Shown here piece by piece: positions 7,584 through 56,420 of a stretch of DNA of 64,000 nt. Position 1 is the stretch's first letter; every line of letters starts with the position of its first letter. The DNA comes from an uncultured Chloroflexia bacterium. Lineage in GTDB: Bacteria; Chloroflexota; Chloroflexia; Chloroflexales; Herpetosiphonaceae. The position numbers were made by a program, and so were the translations under genes. Location of the stretch: positions 2,310,547 to 2,374,546 of the forward strand of contig CAVYBW010000001.1 of assembly GCA_963767035.1 (NCBI GenBank), in the 5' to 3' direction. The notes beneath the pieces were generated by a model that had not been told where the DNA came from, searched no databases, and saw only the letters and a list, made by a program, of their open reading frames with translations.

Positions 7584-8480
7584 ATGTCGTCAAGGATTCG
7601 CCGCAGTGAAATGACTTGCCCCGCGCATAGCCTGGCCATGATCACCAAAGCCGCCGCCTCTGATGCCGATGAAGTGATTATTGATTTGGAAGATGCCTGC
7701 GCGGTTTCGCAGAAAATTGCTGCCCGCGCCACGGTGATTCAAGCCTTGCAGACGCTTGATTTTGGCCAGAAAATTGTGGCTGTACGGCCAAACGCCGTCC
7801 AAACCCATTATCACTACCGCGATGTGGTCGAAATTGTCGAGGCTGCTGGAGCTAAAATCGATGTTTTGGTGATTCCGAAAATCGAAAGTGCCGATGATGT
7901 GCGGTTTGTCGATCGCTTGCTGAGCCAAATCGAAGCCAACATTGGGCTAAACCTTGGCACAATTAAGCTCGAAGTATTGATCGAAGGCACGCGGGCCTTG
8001 CAAGCAGTTGAGCAAATTGCCAATGCTTCGCCGCGTTTGGAGAGCCTAATTTTTGGTTTGGCCGATTATGCAGGCGATTTGGGCGCACGCTCGACTGATG
8101 ATCAATGGGGCATGTTTGCTTACCCCAAACACAAAATGCTGGTTGCCGCCAAAGCGGCTGGGCTTGAGGCGATCGATAATGTGACCTTTGCTTTTCGTGA
8201 TGCTGAGGCCTGCCAACGTGATGCTGAGCGCGCCGCTGCCATGGGCTTCGATGGCAAATGGGCAATTCATCCGACGCAAGTGCCAATTATCAACCAAGCT
8301 TTTTTACCAAGCGCCGCCGAAATTGCCGAGGCCCAACGCTTGATCAATGCCTATCAAACTGCCGATCAACAGGCAGGCTTGGGCGCAATCGCGATTGATG
8401 ATCAAATGATCGATGCAGCGAGTTTGCGGGTGCATGCCAAAAAATTAGCGCTGGCTCAACGTGCAGGCTTACTGGAATAG
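7584..8480 (+). CDS. HpcH/HpaI aldolase / citrate lyase beta-subunit (CitE)-like CoA-ester lyase
   Basis: ORF track starts at 7341; internal ATG at 7584 has an AAAGGA RBS; motifs IIDLEDA, PKIES, GLADYAGDLG. Confidence 0.7.
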   Translation: MSSRIRRSEMTCPAHSLAMITKAAASDADEVIIDLEDACAVSQKIAARATVIQALQTLDFGQKIVAVRPNAVQTHYHYRDVVEIVEAAGAKIDVLVIPKIESADDVRFVDRLLSQIEANIGLNLGTIKLEVLIEGTRALQAVEQIANASPRLESLIFGLADYAGDLGARSTDDQWGMFAYPKHKMLVAAKAAGLEAIDNVTFAFRDAEACQRDAERAAAMGFDGKWAIHPTQVPIINQAFLPSAAEIAEAQRLINAYQTADQQAGLGAIAIDDQMIDAASLRVHAKKLALAQRAGLLE

Positions 8481-8493
8481 TTTATGTGAGTTT

Positions 8494-8598
8494 GCCCCCC
8501 TGCACCCCCTAAAGCTCAACAGGTGGCATACAGAAATCTTACGCTACCAAAACGCCCCTCGCCCGCGTGCAGTGGGCGAGGGGGCTGGGGGGTGAGGC
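8494..8598. repeat. GC-rich hairpin repeat family member (CCCCTCGCCCGCGTGCAGTGGGCGAGGGG + CTGGGGGGTGAGG)
   Basis: Perfect 10-bp stem hairpin read directly; same family recurs at nine or more sites. Confidence 0.7.
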
Positions 8599-8700
8599 AA
8601 CCAATCGTGTCATCCTATAGCTCAATCAATTTCGTGCCTCATGATATACTGTGAGCAGACTGACATTGCAAGCCCTCACACATAGGACATAAAAAACACA

Positions 8701-10503
8701 ATGGCTGAACAGACGCACATTCGCAACTTTAGCATTATCGCCCACGTCGATCATGGTAAAACTACCCTCTCGGATCGCCTGTTGGAAGTGACCCAAACCC
8801 TTTCATCACGCGAGATGCGTGCCCAAACCCTCGATGCCATGGATTTGGAACGCGAAAAGGGCATCACAATCAAGATGCACCCCGTCCGGCTAGAATATAC
8901 CGCCAAGGATGGCCAGCAATATGCCTTGCATATGATTGACTGCCCTGGTCACGTTGACTTTAGCTATGAAGTTTCACGCTCGTTGCAAGCCTGTGAAGGC
9001 GCATTGTTGATTGTTGATGCTTCACAAGGCATCGAAGCCCAAACTTTAGCTAATGTCTACCTTGCACTCGAAAACAATCTCGAAATTATTCCAATCTTGA
9101 ATAAAATCGACTTGCCTGGCGCTGAGGTTGAGCGCGTTTCCGAAGAAGTCGAACGTGTATTGGGCTTGCCACGCGAAGAGATTATTTTGGCTTCGGGCAA
9201 AGAAGGCACGGGCGTTCCCGAAATTCTTGAAGCGATTGTCGCCCGAATTCCACCACCCAGAGGCAAAAATGAAGCGCCAGCCCGCGCTTTGATTTTTGAT
9301 TCGCAATACAACGCCTACAAAGGGGTTATTGCCTATGTTCGGGTGGTCGATGGCACAATTCGCACTGGCGATAAATTGCGCCTAATGGGTACCGACGTGC
9401 TGACCGAAGCCATGGAAATTGGCTTCTTCCGACCTGGCATGGTTGCTGGGCAATCACTCAGCGCTGGCGAAGTTGGCTACATCGCCACAGGGTTGAAGTC
9501 GGTGCGCGATTGCCAAGTTGGCGATACAATCACCCTAATCGATAACCCTGCGACTGATACGCTAGCGCCTTACGAGCCAGCCAAGCCAATGGTGTTTGCG
9601 GGCTTGTATCCGGTCGATTCAGGCGATTACACCTTGTTGCGCGATGCGCTGGATAAGTTGCGCCTAAATGATGCTGCACTTTCGTTTGAGCCAGAAACTT
9701 CAGCCGCGCTCGGTTTTGGCTTTCGGGCCGGCTTCTTGGGCTTGCTGCATATGGAAATTGTGCAAGAACGGCTCGAACGCGAATACAACATTGATCTGTT
9801 GATCACTGCTCCAAGCGTAGAATATCAAGTTTTGACCAACGATGGCGAAATTCTGATCATCGATAATCCATCAGAATTGCCTGATGTTGGCTTGATTGAT
9901 CAGATTGAAGAGCCAATGATGTCGATCAGCATTATTGTGCCAACCCGCTATATCGGCACGGTGATGGAGCTAGTTACCAACAAACGTGGCGTATTCCAAA
10001 GCATGGATTATTTGGATCAAGAGCGGGTGTTGATGAAATATGAAATTCCGCTCTCAGAAATTGTGATCGATTTCTACGATTCGCTCAAATCACGGACCCA
10101 AGGCTATGCTTCGCTGGATTATCATCTGAGCAGCTATCGCGCCTCGGATTTGGTCAAACTCGACGTGTTGGTCAATGGAACGGCAGTTGATGCACTTTCG
10201 ATGATCACTCACCGCGATAATGCCTATCGCCAAGGCCGCCAATTGGTCGAAAAGCTGCAAAAGCTGATTCCACGCCAAATGTTTGAAGTGCCAATTCAAG
10301 CGGCGGTTGGCTCACGGGTAATCGCCCGCGAAACCATTCGGGCAATGCGCAAAGACGTGTTGTCGAAATGTTACGGTGGCGACATCAGCCGTAAGCGCAA
10401 GCTCTTGGAAAAGCAAAAAGAAGGCAAGAAGCGCATGAAGATGGTTGGTAATGTCGAAATCCCTCAAGATGCGTTTATGGCGGTCTTGAAGCTCGACAGC
10501 TAG
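8701..10503 (+). CDS. lepA: Translation elongation factor 4 (LepA)
   Basis: [18 protein letters not shown]-domain; full-length LepA architecture. Confidence 0.95.
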
Positions 10504-14537: not shown

Positions 14538-14746
14538 CCCTCACCACAACCCTGCTACCATGGTGCGAGCGAGGGGCTTTTTGTTGCGTAGTTTTGCCGT
14601 GATGCGTGAGACCAAGCGACATGTAACTCCCCCTGGCCGAGCAGGCGAGAGAGGGGTCTGGGGGTGAGGGAACGCTCAACCTTTGCCCATCCACCATACC
14701 ATCCTTGTGCGGCCTGCTCGGCGGGAGAGGGGCTGGGGGTCAGCGG
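14538..14746. repeat. Cluster of GC-rich hairpin repeat units (same family)
   Basis: CCTCACC...GCGAGGGGC and GGGGTCTGGGGGTGAGGGAAC units. Confidence 0.65.
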
Positions 14747-14939
14747 ACACTCCAATTTTCCTCATGATTCCTGCTTCGTACTTCATGCTTGATTATTTCG
14801 GGTGCGACTTTCAAAAAACGATAAAATATAGTAGGATTAGCACAACCGCGCAATGCGTCAAAAAGGGCGACTTTTTAAGCTTTTGACAGGCTGCCCACGC
14901 TCCTCTATCATGAGGATATTAATTTTTTAGCCATCGAGC

Positions 14940-15188
14940 ATGTGGTGTGGATGGGATATCATGGATTCGCAGCAACAGTTCGCCGCTGCCTCGCATTTGA
15001 CTGCTGATAATTTGCGTAGTATTGCGCATTCGATCTCAATCAGTCAGGTGTCGCGGTTGTCGTTGCCAGAGATCGATGCCGTTGTTGACCAAATCTCGCG
15101 GGTGGTGCCTGCTGGCAACGTGCCCGGGGTGATTTTAAGCGGTTTAGCCAAGTTTAACGGGCCGTCGGCCAGCAGGCAATGTAATTAA
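14940..15188 (+). CDS. Small hypothetical protein (74-82 aa) immediately upstream of the 721-aa gene
   Basis: ORF ends 8 nt before the next gene; no recognisable domain. Confidence 0.3.
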   Translation: MWCGWDIMDSQQQFAAASHLTADNLRSIAHSISISQVSRLSLPEIDAVVDQISRVVPAGNVPGVILSGLAKFNGPSASRQCN

Positions 15189-15195
15189 ACGTGAT

Positions 15196-17361
15196 GTGAA
15201 TCTCATGTTTCGCGGAGTTGAGCAAGCGCTTGATAAAGCGGTGTTTAGCACCTTCTTTGCTGGGCCAGCCGCAGTTATTTGGGGTTACCAAAAGCTGTTG
15301 GAGTTGGCAGGCAAAGATCCCCAAGATGCGTTTCCTGAAGGCACATGGCAATTTTATGTTGGCTATGCCTTGCGTGAGGATACTGCCCGCCACGCCAACG
15401 AAACTGTCGGCTTCGACGAAACACTGAACGATCATAAAATCAATTTGCCGCCGATCGACCGCATGACTGCTTGGGTCATGGCGGCAATTCATCTTCTCCA
15501 CAGTTACCCCGAATTGCTTGAAAATGAATGGCGCGAGCGGGTTTCGTTGGCCTTGCTGCGCGATCTGACCAAGGTTAATCCAGAAACCCGCCAATTTGCC
15601 GACCTCTACAGTCAATGGGAACGCCAACGCCCCTATGGCCGTGGCCCCGATGTGCAATCGCAGGAAACCTACGCTATCTATCGCAAACGTAAATTCGATG
15701 AATTTATGGCCGAATCAACCCGTGAATTGCCGAAAGAGCTGCGCGAACGCTGGGGCAAGCAGTTTCAACGCGCTCGTGAAATTGCGCTGCCAGCCTATCA
15801 ACGCCAAATGTCGTTGGCAGCATACCTCGATCCAACGCCCTATAACGAAAATATGGTGGCCTTGCCACGCCAAAGTTGGCATATTGGTTTAATCTGGCGC
15901 GGCCATTATTATTTGATTCCGGCCTGCGCCCCCAATAGCACGCGACCCAACGATGTGAGCAATGTGCGGAGCCAAATTGCCGCGTTGTTGGCAAGCCCCG
16001 CCAATCATGCCCCAACCTCGTTAATTCCCTTGGCAACCACCAAACGGGCAAGTTTGCCAAGCATTTTGGGCAAGCTGCGCCCCGAAACCAGCCAACAACT
16101 CGAAGCATTGCGTTGTGCCCCAATTTGGTTTAACGCCGATGGCCGACCACGCCATTTGCCTTTGGCCGAATTGCGCCTAACCGAACGGGCGCTTGGCGAC
16201 CACGGCTTAACCTTGATCGATACTGGCTCAAGTATGGTCTTTGATCAATCGCATATTTTCTTTGATGGTGCGTGGGGTTCAGCCGTCGCCGAAATTATGA
16301 CACTCGAAGCCTTGGCGTGGGCGGTCTATTTGCGTGGGCAACCGGCTCCAGTTGCGGGTACGGTGCGCCCATATGCCCCCAATATTGAGCTAAACGACGA
16401 GGAAAAACAAATCATCGCCGATAGCCCCAAGATTGTGGCCGAAGCCAGCGCCGAATCAATTGGGCTTGATCTGAAGAAGATTTTGGATTTACGCAAGTTG
16501 TTCAAGCAGCGTAACGACCAAATTCGGATCACGGTCAATGATATATTGGTGCTTTATCGCGCGATTCATGCGGTTTCCTACAAGCCCAATCCTGAGTTGC
16601 AAGTTTCGTTGCAAGAAGCCGCAAACGATGCCAATCTCAAAGCGGCGGTTGAAGCAACCATTACAGCCTTTGAAGAATCGCTCAGCAATCCCGCGATTTT
16701 AATTCCAGTTGATGGCAGCATTCCCAATCCCAGCGATCGCCTGCATCCCATGACTTTCGAGGTTCCACTGGAAGAACTTGAGATCAACAAATTGCATGAA
16801 CGGGCGTTGAGTTTACTTGATCAAGCTCGTCAAGAGTGGCGCGCCGAAGTTTGGGATACCTTTGAAGCCACCCAAAAGCATTATTTGGCCACGATTGCTG
16901 GCTTTGGCGAAGTTTCAGCTCGCGCCAAAGATATTGCCCAATCAGGTGAAAGCACTTCGTCTGGAGCTTTGCGCTTGTTGGCGCACGTACCGATGGCCTT
17001 ACAACGCTTGCTCGATGCGATTCCAGGCAAGTTCGACGTGCTCAACGATTTGATCAAAGGCCGCGAGGTGCTTTCAAATGTTGGCGCTGTCGCCGATACC
17101 AGCTCCCTGTCACGCTTTATCACCGCCAAAGACGATAACGAAAAGAAAACTTTGGCTTGGGGTGTGATTACCGATGCCAACGGCGTGATGCACGTTTCGC
17201 TGCGCGACTTCCGACCGCATGTTGGCTTGTTTGTGCAGGCTGGGCGGCGCGATTTGGCGCGGCGGATTGCCAATGATTACCTTGAAAGCTACGTCAATGG
17301 GCTTAATCGCTTTATCAGCGAACTGACCAAAATCACCCAAGGCCGCCATAGTCGCCAATGA
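15196..17361 (+). CDS. Large hypothetical protein (721 aa), no recognisable domain; GTG start at 15196 or ATG at 15205
   Basis: Long uninterrupted ORF with normal codon usage; directly upstream of the tandem kinase. Confidence 0.6.
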   Translation: MNLMFRGVEQALDKAVFSTFFAGPAAVIWGYQKLLELAGKDPQDAFPEGTWQFYVGYALREDTARHANETVGFDETLNDHKINLPPIDRMTAWVMAAIHLLHSYPELLENEWRERVSLALLRDLTKVNPETRQFADLYSQWERQRPYGRGPDVQSQETYAIYRKRKFDEFMAESTRELPKELRERWGKQFQRAREIALPAYQRQMSLAAYLDPTPYNENMVALPRQSWHIGLIWRGHYYLIPACAPNSTRPNDVSNVRSQIAALLASPANHAPTSLIPLATTKRASLPSILGKLRPETSQQLEALRCAPIWFNADGRPRHLPLAELRLTERALGDHGLTLIDTGSSMVFDQSHIFFDGAWGSAVAEIMTLEALAWAVYLRGQPAPVAGTVRPYAPNIELNDEEKQIIADSPKIVAEASAESIGLDLKKILDLRKLFKQRNDQIRITVNDILVLYRAIHAVSYKPNPELQVSLQEAANDANLKAAVEATITAFEESLSNPAILIPVDGSIPNPSDRLHPMTFEVPLEELEINKLHERALSLLDQARQEWRAEVWDTFEATQKHYLATIAGFGEVSARAKDIAQSGESTSSGALRLLAHVPMALQRLLDAIPGKFDVLNDLIKGREVLSNVGAVADTSSLSRFITAKDDNEKKTLAWGVITDANGVMHVSLRDFRPHVGLFVQAGRRDLARRIANDYLESYVNGLNRFISELTKITQGRHSRQ

Positions 17362-17462
17362 TGTGGCTACGAGCTGCGGGCTATTGGCTGAAATAATGAG
17401 CATCATTACAACACAATCAACGCTGGGTGTGACAATCAATGGCATAGTAGTAGGTTACCCTG

Positions 17463-17488
17463 TAGCCTATAGCCTATAGCCTATAGCC
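17463..17488. repeat. 7-bp tandem repeat (TAGCCTA) x about 3.7, ending 11 nt upstream of the kinase start codon
   Basis: Read directly: tagcctatagcctatagcctatagcc. Confidence 0.8.
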
Positions 17489-17499
17489 AAGATACTACT

Positions 17500-19722
17500 A
17501 TGACTGATGATCTGCTAGGAAAACAACTCGCCAATTTTCGCATCGACCGAGTTCTAGGCCGTGGTGGCATGGGCTTGATCTACGTCGGCCACGATATCAA
17601 ACTTGATCGGCCTGTGGCGATCAAGGTGATCGATGGGCGCTATCGTCAAGTGCCAAGCTATGCCGAGCGCTTTGTGCGCGAAGCCCGCGCCATCGCTACT
17701 TGGCGGCACGAGAATATCGTTCAGATCTACTACGCCGACGATACCAATAATCTCTATTATTTTGTAATGGAGTATATCGATGGCGTTGATCTTTCCAAAG
17801 TTTTAGCCCAATACACCAGCACTAGTAGCCTCTTGCCGCATAGCGCCGTGATCCATATTGCCCGTAGTTTGGCTAGTGCGCTCGATTATGCCCACAAAAA
17901 GGGCGTGATTCACCGCGACATCAAGCCATCAAATGTGATGGTGGCCCACGATCAGCGGGTGGTGTTGATGGATTTTGGCTTGGCGCTCGATACCCAGCTT
18001 GGCTCGCAGGGCGAAGTGTTTGGCACGGCCCACTACATCGCGCCTGAACAGGCTCGCCGCTCTGCCGATGCAATTCCGCAATCAGATTTATATGCTTTAG
18101 GCGTGATGTTGTATGAATTATTAACTGGCTCGGTGCCATTTGATGATCCATCGGCAACCAGCGTGGCTTTACAACATATCACCCAGCCACCGCCAGCGCC
18201 CCAAGAGAAAAACCCCAAACTCAATGATGCCACGGCAGCGGTGCTGGTCAAAGCGCTAGCCAAAGCGCCAGCTGATCGTTTTCAAACCGGTGCCGAGCTG
18301 ATGGCGGCTTTAGAACAAGCTTTGGAGGTTACAGGTAGTCATCAAATTGCGGCGAATGCCAATGTTGCGCCTGGTGTACGGCCACCATCACAGCCTGGAG
18401 CATTAGGCTTTGCCACCTTCGACCCCGAAAAACCCTTGGAAGGCCAATATCTCGATGGCTATCGGGTTGAATCGTTGCTCGGTCGCGGCGGGATGGCCAA
18501 CATCTTCCGTGGAGTCGATGTGCGGCTCAATCGCACGGTGGCGATCAAAGTTATCGATACGCCATTCCGCAACGATCAAAGCTATGCCGAACGTTTCAAC
18601 CGCGAAGCCCAAGCGATTGCCCAGCTCGAACATCCCAATATTGTGCGGCTCTATCACTATGGCGATTCCTATGGCCTGTTGTATATGGTGATGGAATATA
18701 TCGAAGGCCAAAATCTGCACAAAGTGATCGAGCAGGTACGCACCAGCGCCCAAGAATGGACACCGCGCACGCTGTGCCGCATGATTCGCGAAATCTGTGC
18801 AGCGTTGGATTATGCACATAGCAAGGGCGTAATCCATCGCGATGTCAAACCATCGAATATTATGATCAACAAAGATGGTCGGGCAATTTTGGCCGATTTT
18901 GGCTTGGCCTTGTTGACCGAGGTTGGCACCCGTGGTGAGATTTTTGGCTCGCCGCATTATGTGGCACCGGAGCAGGCAATCTCATCGGCCAAGGTTGTGC
19001 CTCAAACCGATCTCTACAGTTTGGGCGTGATTTTATATGAGCTTTGGACGGGTCAAGTGCCGTTTGACGATGCTGATCCGTTGGCAATTGCCATGTTGCA
19101 TATGGCCGAGCCACCCAAAGCGCCACGCTCGATCAATCCGGCTATTTCGGCCCAACTTGAGGCTGTGATTCTCAAAATGTTGGCCAAAGATCCTGCCGAA
19201 CGCTTTCCGACTGGGGTTGATTTGGCTGAAGCGTTGGAAGCAGCGCTGGGCATTTCATCGACTGGCACAGGCGAATATGTACGTAGCCAAATCACGCCAG
19301 TGCTTGATCAAGCAGTTAATGCGCCAAGTGCGCCAGCGATTTCAACTCCAACGCCAGTGGTTATCGCAACTGAGCCAACCTCACCTAAAACTGCCAGCCA
19401 GCCAATTTCCAACGTATTGCCAGCAGAGTCGTTACCAACCCCGCCAACACCTGCAAACAAATACGAGAAAGCGCCTTCTGAGCCAACCAAACGGCGGGTG
19501 CAGCCATTGCCGCCAACGCCAGCCGCCGTCGCCAAAGCTCCCGAGCCAACCAGCGCGCCGACGCTGCCCATGCCACCAGCCGATAACACTATTCGCGAAG
19601 CGCCAGCCCCGCGTTTGTATACCAATCGGCAACAACGCAGCAGCCTTTTGATGATGCTGCTTGGTGTGATTGCGCTGATCTTTTTTATCGTGCTGATCTG
19701 GCAACTAGCCAACATGATCTAA
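17500..19722 (+). CDS. Ser/Thr protein kinase with two complete tandem catalytic domains, a Pro-rich linker and a C-terminal TM anchor
   Basis: Both domains carry GRGGM glycine loop, VAIK, HRDxKPSN, DFG, APE. Confidence 0.85.
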   Translation: MTDDLLGKQLANFRIDRVLGRGGMGLIYVGHDIKLDRPVAIKVIDGRYRQVPSYAERFVREARAIATWRHENIVQIYYADDTNNLYYFVMEYIDGVDLSKVLAQYTSTSSLLPHSAVIHIARSLASALDYAHKKGVIHRDIKPSNVMVAHDQRVVLMDFGLALDTQLGSQGEVFGTAHYIAPEQARRSADAIPQSDLYALGVMLYELLTGSVPFDDPSATSVALQHITQPPPAPQEKNPKLNDATAAVLVKALAKAPADRFQTGAELMAALEQALEVTGSHQIAANANVAPGVRPPSQPGALGFATFDPEKPLEGQYLDGYRVESLLGRGGMANIFRGVDVRLNRTVAIKVIDTPFRNDQSYAERFNREAQAIAQLEHPNIVRLYHYGDSYGLLYMVMEYIEGQNLHKVIEQVRTSAQEWTPRTLCRMIREICAALDYAHSKGVIHRDVKPSNIMINKDGRAILADFGLALLTEVGTRGEIFGSPHYVAPEQAISSAKVVPQTDLYSLGVILYELWTGQVPFDDADPLAIAMLHMAEPPKAPRSINPAISAQLEAVILKMLAKDPAERFPTGVDLAEALEAALGISSTGTGEYVRSQITPVLDQAVNAPSAPAISTPTPVVIATEPTSPKTASQPISNVLPAESLPTPPTPANKYEKAPSEPTKRRVQPLPPTPAAVAKAPEPTSAPTLPMPPADNTIREAPAPRLYTNRQQRSSLLMMLLGVIALIFFIVLIWQLANMI

Positions 19723-19729
19723 TGTGTAT

Positions 19730-19937
19730 CCTCAACCTCCAACCCTCTCGCCTCACAAGGGTTGGTTTTTAACAATGGACTGGTGGATGGGCAACGTTTT
19801 TGCGTTCCCTCACCCCCTCACCCCCTCTCCCGCACACGAGGCGAGGGGGAACCGATTGCGACATCCCATGAAGCAACAAAACCACGGCGTTAAGCCCCTC
19901 TCTCGTGGCGCGGAAGAGGGGTTGGGGTGAGGGAACG
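19730..19937. repeat. Cluster of GC-rich hairpin repeat units (same family)
   Basis: CCCTCACCCCCTCACCCCCTCTCCCGCACACGAGGCGAGGGGG; AGCCCCTCTCTCGTGGCGCGGAAGAGGGGTTGGGGTGAGGGAAC. Confidence 0.65.
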
Positions 19938-20093
19938 CAAAACCCTGTTGCTCCCGCCCAAAATTGTGGAACGAATCAGGCTGTTAACTCCTAGCCTACA
20001 ATCCAAGTCCAATCGAGAACTGATGGACAGAATTCATTGCAGCCGTACAATTGCATTGATCGATTTTGATCCATCAATGTGGATGAGGTAGCT

Positions 20094-21011
20094 ATGCTTG
20101 AGCGTTATCGTGGCTGTTTGTTGGGGTTGGCTGTTGGCGATGCAGTTGGAACGACAGTGGAATTTAGCCCACCAGGTTCATTTAAACCACTGACCGATAT
20201 GGTTGGTGGTGGGCCATTTAATTTACCGCTAGGCGCGTGGACAGACGATACCTCGATGGCGTTATGCTTGGCAGCAAGTCTGATCGAGCGTCAAGGCTTC
20301 GATGCAGTTGATCAGATGCAGCGCTATTGTCGTTGGCGTGATTACGGTTATATGAGCAGCACTGGCTCGTGTTTTGATTGTGGCATTACGGTTGGCAAAG
20401 CACTAAGCACATTTCAAAGCACTGGCGATCCTTATAGTGGCTCGACCGATCCATCAACTGCGGGCAATGGCTCGTTGATGCGCTTGGCGCCGGTAGTTTT
20501 GGCCTATGCCAGCCAACCAGAGCAGGCCATGCAGCTGGCGGTTGATAGCTCGCGCACCACTCATGGCGCACTTGCGGCACTTGATGCCTGTCGTTATTTC
20601 GCTGGTTTGTTAATTGGCGCATTGAATGGAGTGGATAAGGCTGAATTGCTGGCTCCGCACTATAGCCCCATTGCTAATTATTGGCAGCAACAACCATTGC
20701 ACGCTGATATTGCTGAGATTGCCGCTGGCTCGTTTTGGCAGCGCCAACCGCCCGAAATTCAAGGTACTGGCTATGTGGTGCGCTCGCTTGAAGCGGCGTT
20801 ATGGGCTTTTGCTCATAGCGATTCATTCCGCGAAGGTTGTTTGCTAGCGGCGAATCTTGGCCACGATGCTGATACCACTGCGGCAATTTATGGCCAAATT
20901 GCCGGAGCCTACTACAGCGAGGCTGGAATTCCCGAAGCATGGCGCAACCCGATTGTTAGCCACGATCTGATTGTTGAATTTGCCGAACGGCTTTATCGCT
21001 TCAGCCATTAA
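20094..21011 (+). CDS. ADP-ribosylglycohydrolase family protein (DraG-like)
   Basis: N-terminal GxLLGxAVGDAxG and WTDDTSMALC motifs; C-terminal GHDADTTAAIYGQIAGAYY. Confidence 0.8.
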   Translation: MLERYRGCLLGLAVGDAVGTTVEFSPPGSFKPLTDMVGGGPFNLPLGAWTDDTSMALCLAASLIERQGFDAVDQMQRYCRWRDYGYMSSTGSCFDCGITVGKALSTFQSTGDPYSGSTDPSTAGNGSLMRLAPVVLAYASQPEQAMQLAVDSSRTTHGALAALDACRYFAGLLIGALNGVDKAELLAPHYSPIANYWQQQPLHADIAEIAAGSFWQRQPPEIQGTGYVVRSLEAALWAFAHSDSFREGCLLAANLGHDADTTAAIYGQIAGAYYSEAGIPEAWRNPIVSHDLIVEFAERLYRFSH

Positions 21012-21034: not shown

Positions 21035-21172
21035 GTTCCCTCACCCCAACCCCGCTCTCGTGGCGCGGGCGAGGGGCTTAATCTTGTGGTTGTTCGTTGA
21101 TGCATGGGCACTCAACGGATGCTCCTCCTCGCCCGCGTGCAGTGGGCGAGGAGGTCAGGGGGTGAGGAAATC
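21035..21172. repeat. Two GC-rich hairpin repeat units (same family)
   Basis: GCTCCTCCTCGCCCGCGTGCAGTGGGCGAGGAGGTCAGGGGGTGAGG. Confidence 0.65.
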
Positions 21173-26555: not shown

Positions 26556-26926
26556 TCCCCTCACCCCCCAACCCCCTCTCCCACTGCACGCGGGCGAGGG
26601 GGAGCCACACAACACTACTGAGATTTCGCGGCGAGCGTTCCCTCACCCCAACCCCTTCGCGCCCTGCACGCGGGCGAGTGGGAGTCCATATCCATTGTTG
26701 CCACGCATCATGACAAACCACGCCGTTAACGCCCCTCGCCCGCCGCTGTGGGAGAGGGGTCGAGGTGAGGGTATCTTCATTACCTACTCTTGCAAGCCAG
26801 CCTCTCTGCACGCGGGCGAGGGGGAGCTATGATCCAAAAATACTGATGCTCCGTCCAATCTCGATACACCACCGTGTTAACGCCCCTCGCCCGCCACGTG
26901 GGCGAGGGGTTGGGGGTGAGGGGATC
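26556..26926. repeat. Largest cluster (five or more units) of the GC-rich hairpin repeat family; includes two copies of a roughly 55-bp composite unit
   Basis: Units at about 26556, 26636, 26729, 26800, 26880; composite unit CGTTAACGCCCCTCGCCCGCC... appears twice. Confidence 0.7.
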
Positions 26927-39575: not shown

Positions 39576-39937
39576 AAAGGATGAAGGATAAAGAATATTC
39601 CCTCACTCACCCCAACCCCGCTCCCGTGGCGCGGGCGAAGGGCTTTACCACGTGAATATCGCAATGGGTGGTGGAAACCCATGCTCCCCCTCGCCCATCG
39701 CTGTGGGAGAGAAGGTCGGGGGGTGCTTACAAGAGTAGATAGTTAAGATCCCCTCACCCCAACCCCTCGCCCACGTGGCGGGCGAGGGGCTTAACTCGGT
39801 GGTTTTGCTGTGCTGTGTATAATCCACGACGGCTCCCCCCTCGCCTCGCGTGCGGGAGCGGGGGTTGGGGGTGAGGGAATACCCAGTACCATTTTAAAAA
39901 CCTACCCTTGTAAAATGGCTCTCATCCTTCATCCTTT
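39576..39937. repeat. Repeat cluster (four GC-rich hairpin units at 39597..39880) bounded by a perfect 14-bp inverted repeat
   Basis: AAAGGATGAAGGAT at 39576 and ATCCTTCATCCTTT at 39924; the right arm encodes the last codons of the GT gene. Confidence 0.55.
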
Positions 39938-56246: not shown

Positions 56247-56420
56247 TCTCCTCACCCCAACCCCTCTCCCGTCCAACAGGCGAGGGGCTTAATCTCATGC
56301 TATTGAGACGATTTATTGAACCAAAAGATCAGTTCTCCCATCGCCCGAGATCACGAATCAACCACAAATCCCGACTCCCCTCGCCCGCGTTCAGTGGGCG
56401 AGGGGTTGGGGGTGAGGGAA
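56247..56420. repeat. Two GC-rich hairpin repeat units (same family)
   Basis: CTCCCCTCGCCCGCGTTCAGTGGGCGAGGGGTTGGGGGTGAGGGAAT. Confidence 0.65.

Follow-up and report, generated by a model that had tools for sequence, protein, structure and literature searches.

What do the three closely spaced open reading frames (ORFs) at positions 14940–19722 of a 64,000-nucleotide (nt) stretch of Chloroflexia DNA encode, and do their products act together? The stretch, referred to here as the window, lies on contig CAVYBW010000001.1 of an uncultured member of the Herpetosiphonaceae. An earlier note on this DNA proposed a three-gene unit consisting of a small ORF (14940–15188; 82 amino acids, or 75 from the ATG at 14961), a large ORF (15196–17361; 721 amino acids, GTG start) and a kinase ORF (17500–19722; 740 amino acids). 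We find all three on the + strand, co-directional and as placed; the reported spacings of 8 and 139 were reproduced as coordinate differences and correspond to intergenic gaps of 7 and 138 nt. The pairing of the large gene with the kinase is conserved and co-directional, but a frameshift has cut the small ORF off from the large gene, so that two genes remain. The locus is thus a two-gene module comprising a 799-residue protein with the fold of the carnitine/choline acyltransferases and a double Ser/Thr kinase, and we hold this gene structure with high confidence.

The window derives from a Herpetosiphon species. In the corrected frame described below, the large protein is 96.6–97.7% identical to 14 Herpetosiphon orthologues, and the DNA is only 87–90% identical to the genomes compared (H. 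aurantiacus, H. llansteffanensis, H. giganteus, H. geysericola, H. gulosus and strain NSE202). The orthologue in H. aurantiacus DSM 785 is ABX02674.1. A homologue search with the 721-residue ORF gave more than 1,300 matches (∼770–845 residues among the matches listed). All homologues found are ∼800 residues long and carry the small-ORF sequence as their own N-terminus, the full-length members of the 90% cluster are intact at 799 residues in 14 of 14 cases, and the 721-residue version is absent from the protein collection searched. The N-terminus of a 97%-identical orthologue (P0001) reads MDSQQQF...GLAKLTGRRPAGNVIKRDVNLLFRG, whereas the small ORF of the window reads MDSQQQF...GLAKFNGPSASRQCN and then stops. 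DNA alignment with the orthologous locus of the H. aurantiacus type (L001) places the difference at one extra T in the window (AAGTTTAACG versus AAG-TTGACG), in a TTT run at 15153–15155 (+ strand) that produces a +1 frameshift relative to the orthologues compared. Deletion of one T yields an uninterrupted frame of 799 codons, the first 64 of which are the small ORF. A single acyltransferase-like gene at 14961–17361 (+ strand, with the 1 nt insertion in this assembly) therefore replaces the small and 721-residue ORFs and, judged from these alignments, the small ORF does not stand as a gene in its own right. Its segment FNGPSASRQCN, which the earlier note had singled out as a Ser/Thr/Cys-containing C-terminal segment, is merely out-of-frame read-through and consequently gives no basis for a precursor peptide.

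The gene is under strong purifying selection, which is evident on both sides of the shift. Codons 1–64 differ from six orthologues at 12–19 nt with only 1–3 amino-acid differences, and codons 65–78, which would go untranslated were the shift real, differ in the corrected frame at 3–10 nt with no amino-acid difference. As selection is not relaxed in the corrected frame, codons 65–78 included, the frameshift is either very recent or a sequencing error, and the extra T is predicted to be one or the other. Programmed frameshifting was rejected, as the extra base is absent from the orthologues compared. It is quite possible, although not the account that we prefer, that the shift is genuine and not a sequencing or assembly error, the gene in this strain being a fresh pseudogene or encoding a two-piece protein (75 and 721 residues). 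The extra base lies in a run of just three T residues and not in a long homopolymer, and the GTG at 15196 would permit the 721-residue product. On the other hand, selection has not slackened even in codons 65–78, all 14 of the orthologues compared are intact and the N-terminal 64 residues hold positions that are invariant in a 69-sequence family alignment (Pro36, Pro50, Gly52, Asn53, Pro55, Gly56 and Gly61).

The 721-residue ORF has no match in direct Pfam and NCBIfam scans, in agreement with the earlier note, which had recognized no domain in it, and direct searches of PADLOC and of PDB sequences with the large protein gave nothing significant. The 69-sequence alignment served to model the 97%-identical orthologue with AlphaFold2 (mean predicted local distance difference test score, pLDDT, 84.5; predicted template-modelling score 0.86). 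When this model was compared with the PDB using Foldseek, the top 28 matches were all carnitine/choline acyltransferases (E from 2.8e-11 to ∼4e-8), followed at ∼1e-4 by condensation-type domains of nonribosomal peptide synthetases (NRPS) and by WS/DGAT. The model displays the two-lobe fold of the chloramphenicol acetyltransferase-like (CAT-like) enzymes that is characteristic of the PF00755 family, with ∼200 more residues than the ∼600-residue eukaryotic enzymes; these are predicted to be mostly helical and mainly N-terminal. The remote-homology search recommended by the earlier note thus matched a known family, a match that does not separate the protein from its kinase neighbour.

The link to PF00755 is also seen in full-length homologues that exceed the Pfam gathering score of 22.3 bits, which we took as the measure of membership: P0145, which is related to the window protein with an E of 4e-125, matches PF00755 with 41.5 bits (E = 8.9e-11), and P0328 and P0368 reach 25.2 and 24.1 bits. 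In agreement with this, CPT2 is the PDB sequence that scores best with a profile built from 40 divergent members, although the E of 0.39 is non-significant; the alignment pairs RGHYYLIP... with RKGHFYVFDV.... PF00755 membership of the window protein itself would follow by transitive homology only. The UniRef label of the H. geysericola orthologue is 'Choline/carnitine acyltransferase domain-containing protein'. We place the protein in the choline/carnitine acyltransferase superfamily from the fold, the HxxxDG motif (see below) and these three homologues, and we hold the predicted fold with high confidence. The earlier suggestion of a probably novel family accordingly survives with respect to the missing direct profile match and gives way to the PF00755 superfamily with respect to ancestry. 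Our best reading is that the product of the first gene is a very divergent cytosolic member of the choline/carnitine branch of the CAT-like CoA-dependent acyltransferase superfamily. The taxonomically labelled family members all come from Chloroflexota. One homologue (P0122, 1127 residues) has a C-terminal FGE-sulfatase domain (PF03781, residues 878–1124), which is either a real fusion or a gene-calling artefact.

HxxxDG is the catalytic signature of the CAT-like acyltransferase superfamily. The best-conserved block of the family, FDQSHIFFDGAWG (window 16240–16278), contains HIFFDG (16252–16269, + strand; His431–Gly436 in orthologue numbering) as the putative catalytic motif, and the pattern FDxSHIFFDG is nearly invariant. 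His431 is present in 68 of 69 close homologues and in 35 of 40 divergent members, Asp435 in 69 of 69 and 39 of 40, respectively, and Gly436 in 69 of 69 close homologues. In the model the motif is located at the end of a strand (residues 425–430) ahead of a helix (residues 436–458), so that the putative catalytic histidine would sit between the two CAT-like lobes; the motif also falls inside the PF00755-matching span of P0145. The spacing of 22 residues between the conserved Arg409 and His431 presumably equals that between the arginine of the RWxDK motif and the catalytic histidine in CrAT. A loop at residues 664–698 (window ∼16952–17056) is highly conserved, yet has a pLDDT below 50. In this region Gly662 and Asp696 are invariant and Ser664, Gly668, His675, Pro677, Asn695 and Lys699 are at least 90% conserved. 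The loop begins with GES(T/A)S (residues 662–666), which we take to resemble the STS motif; a mobile active-site lid, an STS-like motif and a phosphorylation/docking loop are all conceivable.

The second gene (17500–19722, + strand) encodes a 740-residue tandem Hanks-type Ser/Thr kinase (Pkinase, E = 3.9e-103, two stretches). The kinase domains K1 (∼17533–18339) and K2 (∼18460–19206) both contain the GxGxxG, VAIK, HRD, DFG and APE motifs on direct reading and are both predicted to be active. A Pro-rich linker leads to a hydrophobic C-terminal helix (∼19645–19701), the predicted membrane anchor, with ∼6 residues beyond it. From its sequence the kinase is a tail-anchored cytoplasmic protein with no extracellular sensor. 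The membrane-anchored dual kinase of the earlier note is thus borne out by two complete Pkinase domains and a hydrophobic tail.

The two genes form a conserved pair. The synteny check called for in the earlier note was carried out on 75 loci from Chloroflexota that have 1.5 kb or more of downstream sequence (50–100% identity), and in 66 of them a Hanks kinase lies directly downstream of the ∼800-residue gene. These comprise 27 fused K1–K2 tandems, 14 separate K1-type and K2-type genes and 25 loci with one kinase. The kinase domain starts 12–170 nt past the gene, or ∼390–500 nt past it in five Herpetosiphon genomes. A tandem kinase or a pair of kinase genes comes directly after the ∼800-residue gene in four divergent contexts, and an adjacent kinase was also present in both relatives looked up at 38–43% identity. 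K1 and K2 are separate conserved lineages, 56–77% identical to the window domains in other Chloroflexota, and the more the partner gene has diverged, the lower their identity, as joint inheritance of the two genes would predict. The partner kinases of most other Chloroflexota extend 200–350 residues past the membrane helix. Clustering of the neighbours for a third gene (e.g. an FHA protein, a phosphatase or a lipid gene) gave none at a useful frequency, and only the two-gene block is syntenic between Herpetosiphon species. Adjacency and co-orientation are hence kept while the other neighbours change; the acyltransferase-like gene and the kinase are a real conserved pair, and we hold their coupling with high confidence. 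The pattern suggests that the K1/K2-paired gene belongs to an uncharacterized phosphorylation-linked acyltransferase module.

Several metagenome-assembled genomes (MAGs) have two copies of the ∼800-residue gene on different contigs (L035/L045, L036/L075, L052/L072 and L055/L062), usually each with its own kinase, and the family has diversified by within-genome duplication. In one Chloroflexota MAG a divergently transcribed gene combining FHA and Trans_reg_C (OmpR-type DNA-binding) domains lies just upstream of the pair (L003, 9104–9595; L004, 184–834); this neighbour is not conserved in the other loci.

The members of a paralogous clade, likewise from Chloroflexota, bear a phosphothreonine-binding FHA domain at the N-terminus, and none of the five loci of this clade places a kinase next to the gene. 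One MAG contains both a kinase-adjacent copy (L026) and an FHA-fused copy (L092). Each clade has its own link to Ser/Thr-phosphorylation signalling, a neighbouring kinase in one and a phosphothreonine reader in the other, and the two pointers are independent. A FolC-like Mur-ligase gene follows the FHA-fused paralogue in two loci (L087, 4999–6333; L090, 5124–6497); in a third (L089, 11886–14896), fabK-like, fabD-like and fabG-like genes lie 1–3 kb downstream of the paralogue and a separate FGE-sulfatase gene ∼1 kb upstream of it. The FolC-like and fab-like neighbours are a possible but weak hint of metabolic context.

Taking these results together, we favour, on balance, a divergent CoA-dependent acyltransferase that is functionally coupled to the membrane-anchored kinase pair, being either controlled by it or signalling to it. 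The acyltransferase-like protein and the kinases would act together, most likely with the kinases phosphorylating or recruiting the enzyme, and Ser/Thr phosphorylation would act as a switch for acyl-CoA-dependent acyl transfer at or near the membrane. The N-terminal FHA domain would make the same coupling in the paralogous clade, taking the place of gene adjacency. Catalytic activity, physical interaction and direction of control are what we infer here, catalysis and the direction of control with lower confidence. A more specific version can be put forward only tentatively, namely that the acyltransferase-fold enzyme is a dedicated effector of the K1/K2 pair or, in the paralogues, of the FHA domain, in a module seen so far only in Chloroflexota, with acyl transfer directly phospho-switched and directed to a membrane-proximal acceptor.

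Several observations weigh against an acyltransferase coupled to the kinases. PF00755 gives no match, even at E ≤ 10, to the 721-residue ORF or to P0001, and identity to the solved acyltransferases is only ∼10%. The correspondence of His431 to the catalytic histidine of CPT2 and CrAT, although well supported, comes from the motif, the secondary-structure position and the Pfam span and not from a residue-level alignment, and the replacement of the histidine by Ala, Pro or Gln in 5 of 40 divergent members indicates that catalysis is not family-wide. There is no adjacent kinase in 9 of the 75 loci, and the spacer of 138–500 nt in Herpetosiphon does not assure co-transcription. Literature searches found no paper on the 799-residue family and no experiment.

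The histidine losses, in which the rest of the protein is kept, are also what would be expected if the acyltransferase-fold protein were a non-catalytic sensor or scaffold that uses the old active-site tunnel to bind acyl-CoA or another metabolite and relays this state to the kinase pair, so that control would run from protein to kinase and not from kinase to enzyme. The Herpetosiphon kinase, with its few residues past the anchor, has no extracellular input domain of its own, and the ∼200 extra helical residues and the conserved low-confidence loop 664–698 are possible interaction surfaces. However, the near-invariance of His431, Asp435 and Gly436 in the kinase-coupled clade is the pattern of an active site, and the long extensions past the helix give the partner kinases of most other Chloroflexota possible sensors of their own. 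We regard a purely sensory role as unlikely, if clearly worth keeping in mind, and prefer the kinase-coupled acyltransferase.

Two further explanations, a peptide-modification trio and a mobile anti-phage defence pair, are effectively excluded. The former, which the earlier note had considered, would make the small ORF the precursor of a ribosomally synthesized and post-translationally modified peptide (RiPP), which the 721-residue protein would modify and the kinase would phosphorylate, in the manner of class III/IV lanthipeptide synthetases. The Ser, Thr and Cys residues near the end of the small ORF as read and sub-threshold matches of the kinase domains to LanL and LanKC models speak for it, but that tail is out of frame, all homologues found have the small ORF as the N-terminal part of the large gene, and the NCBIfam scores (211 bits against a cut-off of 650 for LanL and 130 against 575 for LanKC) involve the kinase domains only. 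No lyase, cyclase, dehydratase, LanB/LanC or YcaO domain was found with Pfam or NCBIfam, consistent with the earlier note, which had seen no LanB/LanC/YcaO-type motifs. With a frameshifted N-terminus in place of a separate precursor-peptide gene, the RiPP explanation is refuted by the intact 799-residue orthologues, and we give it almost no credence. That the kinase is the effector of a defence pair, with the large protein as its partner, is scarcely less improbable. The kinase does score high against the PADLOC PD-T4-6 and mad6 and the NCBIfam MAD6 models, and the flanking genes differ between Herpetosiphon species. The models matched are Hanks-kinase models, however, and the matches are not specific to defence because ordinary PknB-type models score at least as well; the MAD6 score of 374 bits is below the cut-off of 460. 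The kinase matches only models of single-kinase systems, the partner protein has no PADLOC match, and no integrase or transposase gene is consistently nearby. Moreover, divergence of the pair follows taxonomy from Herpetosiphon through Herpetosiphonaceae to Anaerolineae, and the acyltransferase-like gene is under strong purifying selection.

The kinase-coupled acyltransferase may be compared with several known systems. It shares with the choline/carnitine O-acyltransferases (PF00755: CPT2, CrAT, CrOT and ChAT) the HxxxDG motif at a strand end, and three members of the 799-residue family pass the gathering score. It differs in the low identity and the lack of a direct profile match for the window protein, in its long helical N-terminal region and in the genetic tie to Hanks kinases or fusion to FHA, with all labelled members in Chloroflexota; this analysis gave no indication of carnitine or choline as a substrate. 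Other HxxxD CAT-like acyltransferases (NRPS condensation/epimerization domains, PapA5/AzeD, WS/DGAT, 2-oxoacid dehydrogenase E2 cores and chloramphenicol acetyltransferase) are clearly more distant than the carnitine/choline branch and, unlike these systems, the window gene has no carrier-protein, adenylation or lipoyl partner domain nearby. Bacterial Hanks kinases are known to be paired with FHA effectors, as in the mycobacterial PknB–FhaA, PknH–EmbR and PknG/PknB–GarA. The present module likewise pairs a Ser/Thr kinase with an effector, which bears FHA in the paralogous clade, but the window effector is an acyltransferase-fold protein linked to K1–K2 by adjacency and not by FHA. The class III/IV lanthipeptide synthetases (LanKC/LanL) have a Ser/Thr-kinase-like domain in common with the module, which differs from them in having neither a lyase or cyclase domain nor a precursor gene and in scoring far under the model cut-offs.

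The fold class is already known and had in part been flagged by UniProt automation; the novelty lies in a divergent subfamily, so far found in Chloroflexota only, whose genes are firmly tied to Hanks kinases or FHA domains, and the interest centres on this coupling. A fold and a candidate active site (His431) can now be given to more than 1,300 'hypothetical proteins', and two independent genomic signals (K1/K2 adjacency and FHA fusions) tie the family to Ser/Thr-phosphorylation signalling. To our knowledge, little has been learnt about bacterial Hanks-kinase effectors beyond a few model phyla, and a kinase-coupled acyltransferase in filamentous Chloroflexota would be a concrete entry point to them. 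If the proposal is correct, a bacterial acyl-transfer step is under a direct Ser/Thr-phosphorylation switch; we know of no described bacterial example of an enzyme of the carnitine acyltransferase class that is switched in this way.

Upstream of the acyltransferase-like gene, a putative promoter (TTGACA–17 nt–TATCAT, 14883–14911, + strand) agrees with the σ70 consensus at 11 of 12 positions, and aligning the orthologous locus L001 shows no difference in this stretch. The 138 nt spacer between the genes (17362–17499, + strand) contains a (CCTATAG)x4.3 tandem at 17459–17488, as identified by TRF. No promoter-like or terminator-like site was called within the spacer, which makes co-transcription of the two genes plausible as far as the sequence indicates, and neither the leader nor the spacer matched an Rfam family (riboswitch or other RNA). 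In L001 (12401–12545) the spacer measures 143 nt; in five other Herpetosiphon genomes it measures ∼390–500 nt and has other content. It is hypervariable among Herpetosiphon (L007–L010 and L077, at about 8398–8900) and filled by short tandem motifs, CCTATAG in the window and AGAACATAG, GAAGGATGA, GGGGATCAGGGG and CTTCGTG in other species.

The genes flanking the module in the window encode a DCC1-like protein, CinA, a protein with an AsnC ligand-binding domain and an ADP-ribosylglycohydrolase; none of these genes is related to the module or shared with other species. The ADP-ribosylglycohydrolase gene (PF03747, E = 1.4e-77; 20079–21011) is immediately downstream of the module and is not syntenic in other Herpetosiphon. 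Just past the kinase stop, in the flank and outside the module, is an imperfect inverted repeat with 43 nt arms composed of GGGGTGAGGG-type units (19798–19942), for which no Rfam family is significant (best match, 26.8 bits; gathering score, 64). The repeat clusters that the earlier note described on both sides of the unit are indeed of the GGGGTGAGGG type, but they are not specific to it and were rejected as the boundary of a mobile unit, as they are members of a dispersed intergenic family. This family, built around GGGGTGAGGG / CCCTCACCCC, has 20 matches in the window against 2 expected, at no fewer than eight intergenic sites (including 14538–14770, 19807–19942, 21038–21168, 26558–26922, 32726–32959, 39604–39877 and 56249–56418). 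Its units of ∼75–80 nt often form long imperfect hairpins, and it looks like an element of this Herpetosiphon genome resembling repetitive extragenic palindromes or miniature inverted-repeat transposable elements (REP/MITE-like).

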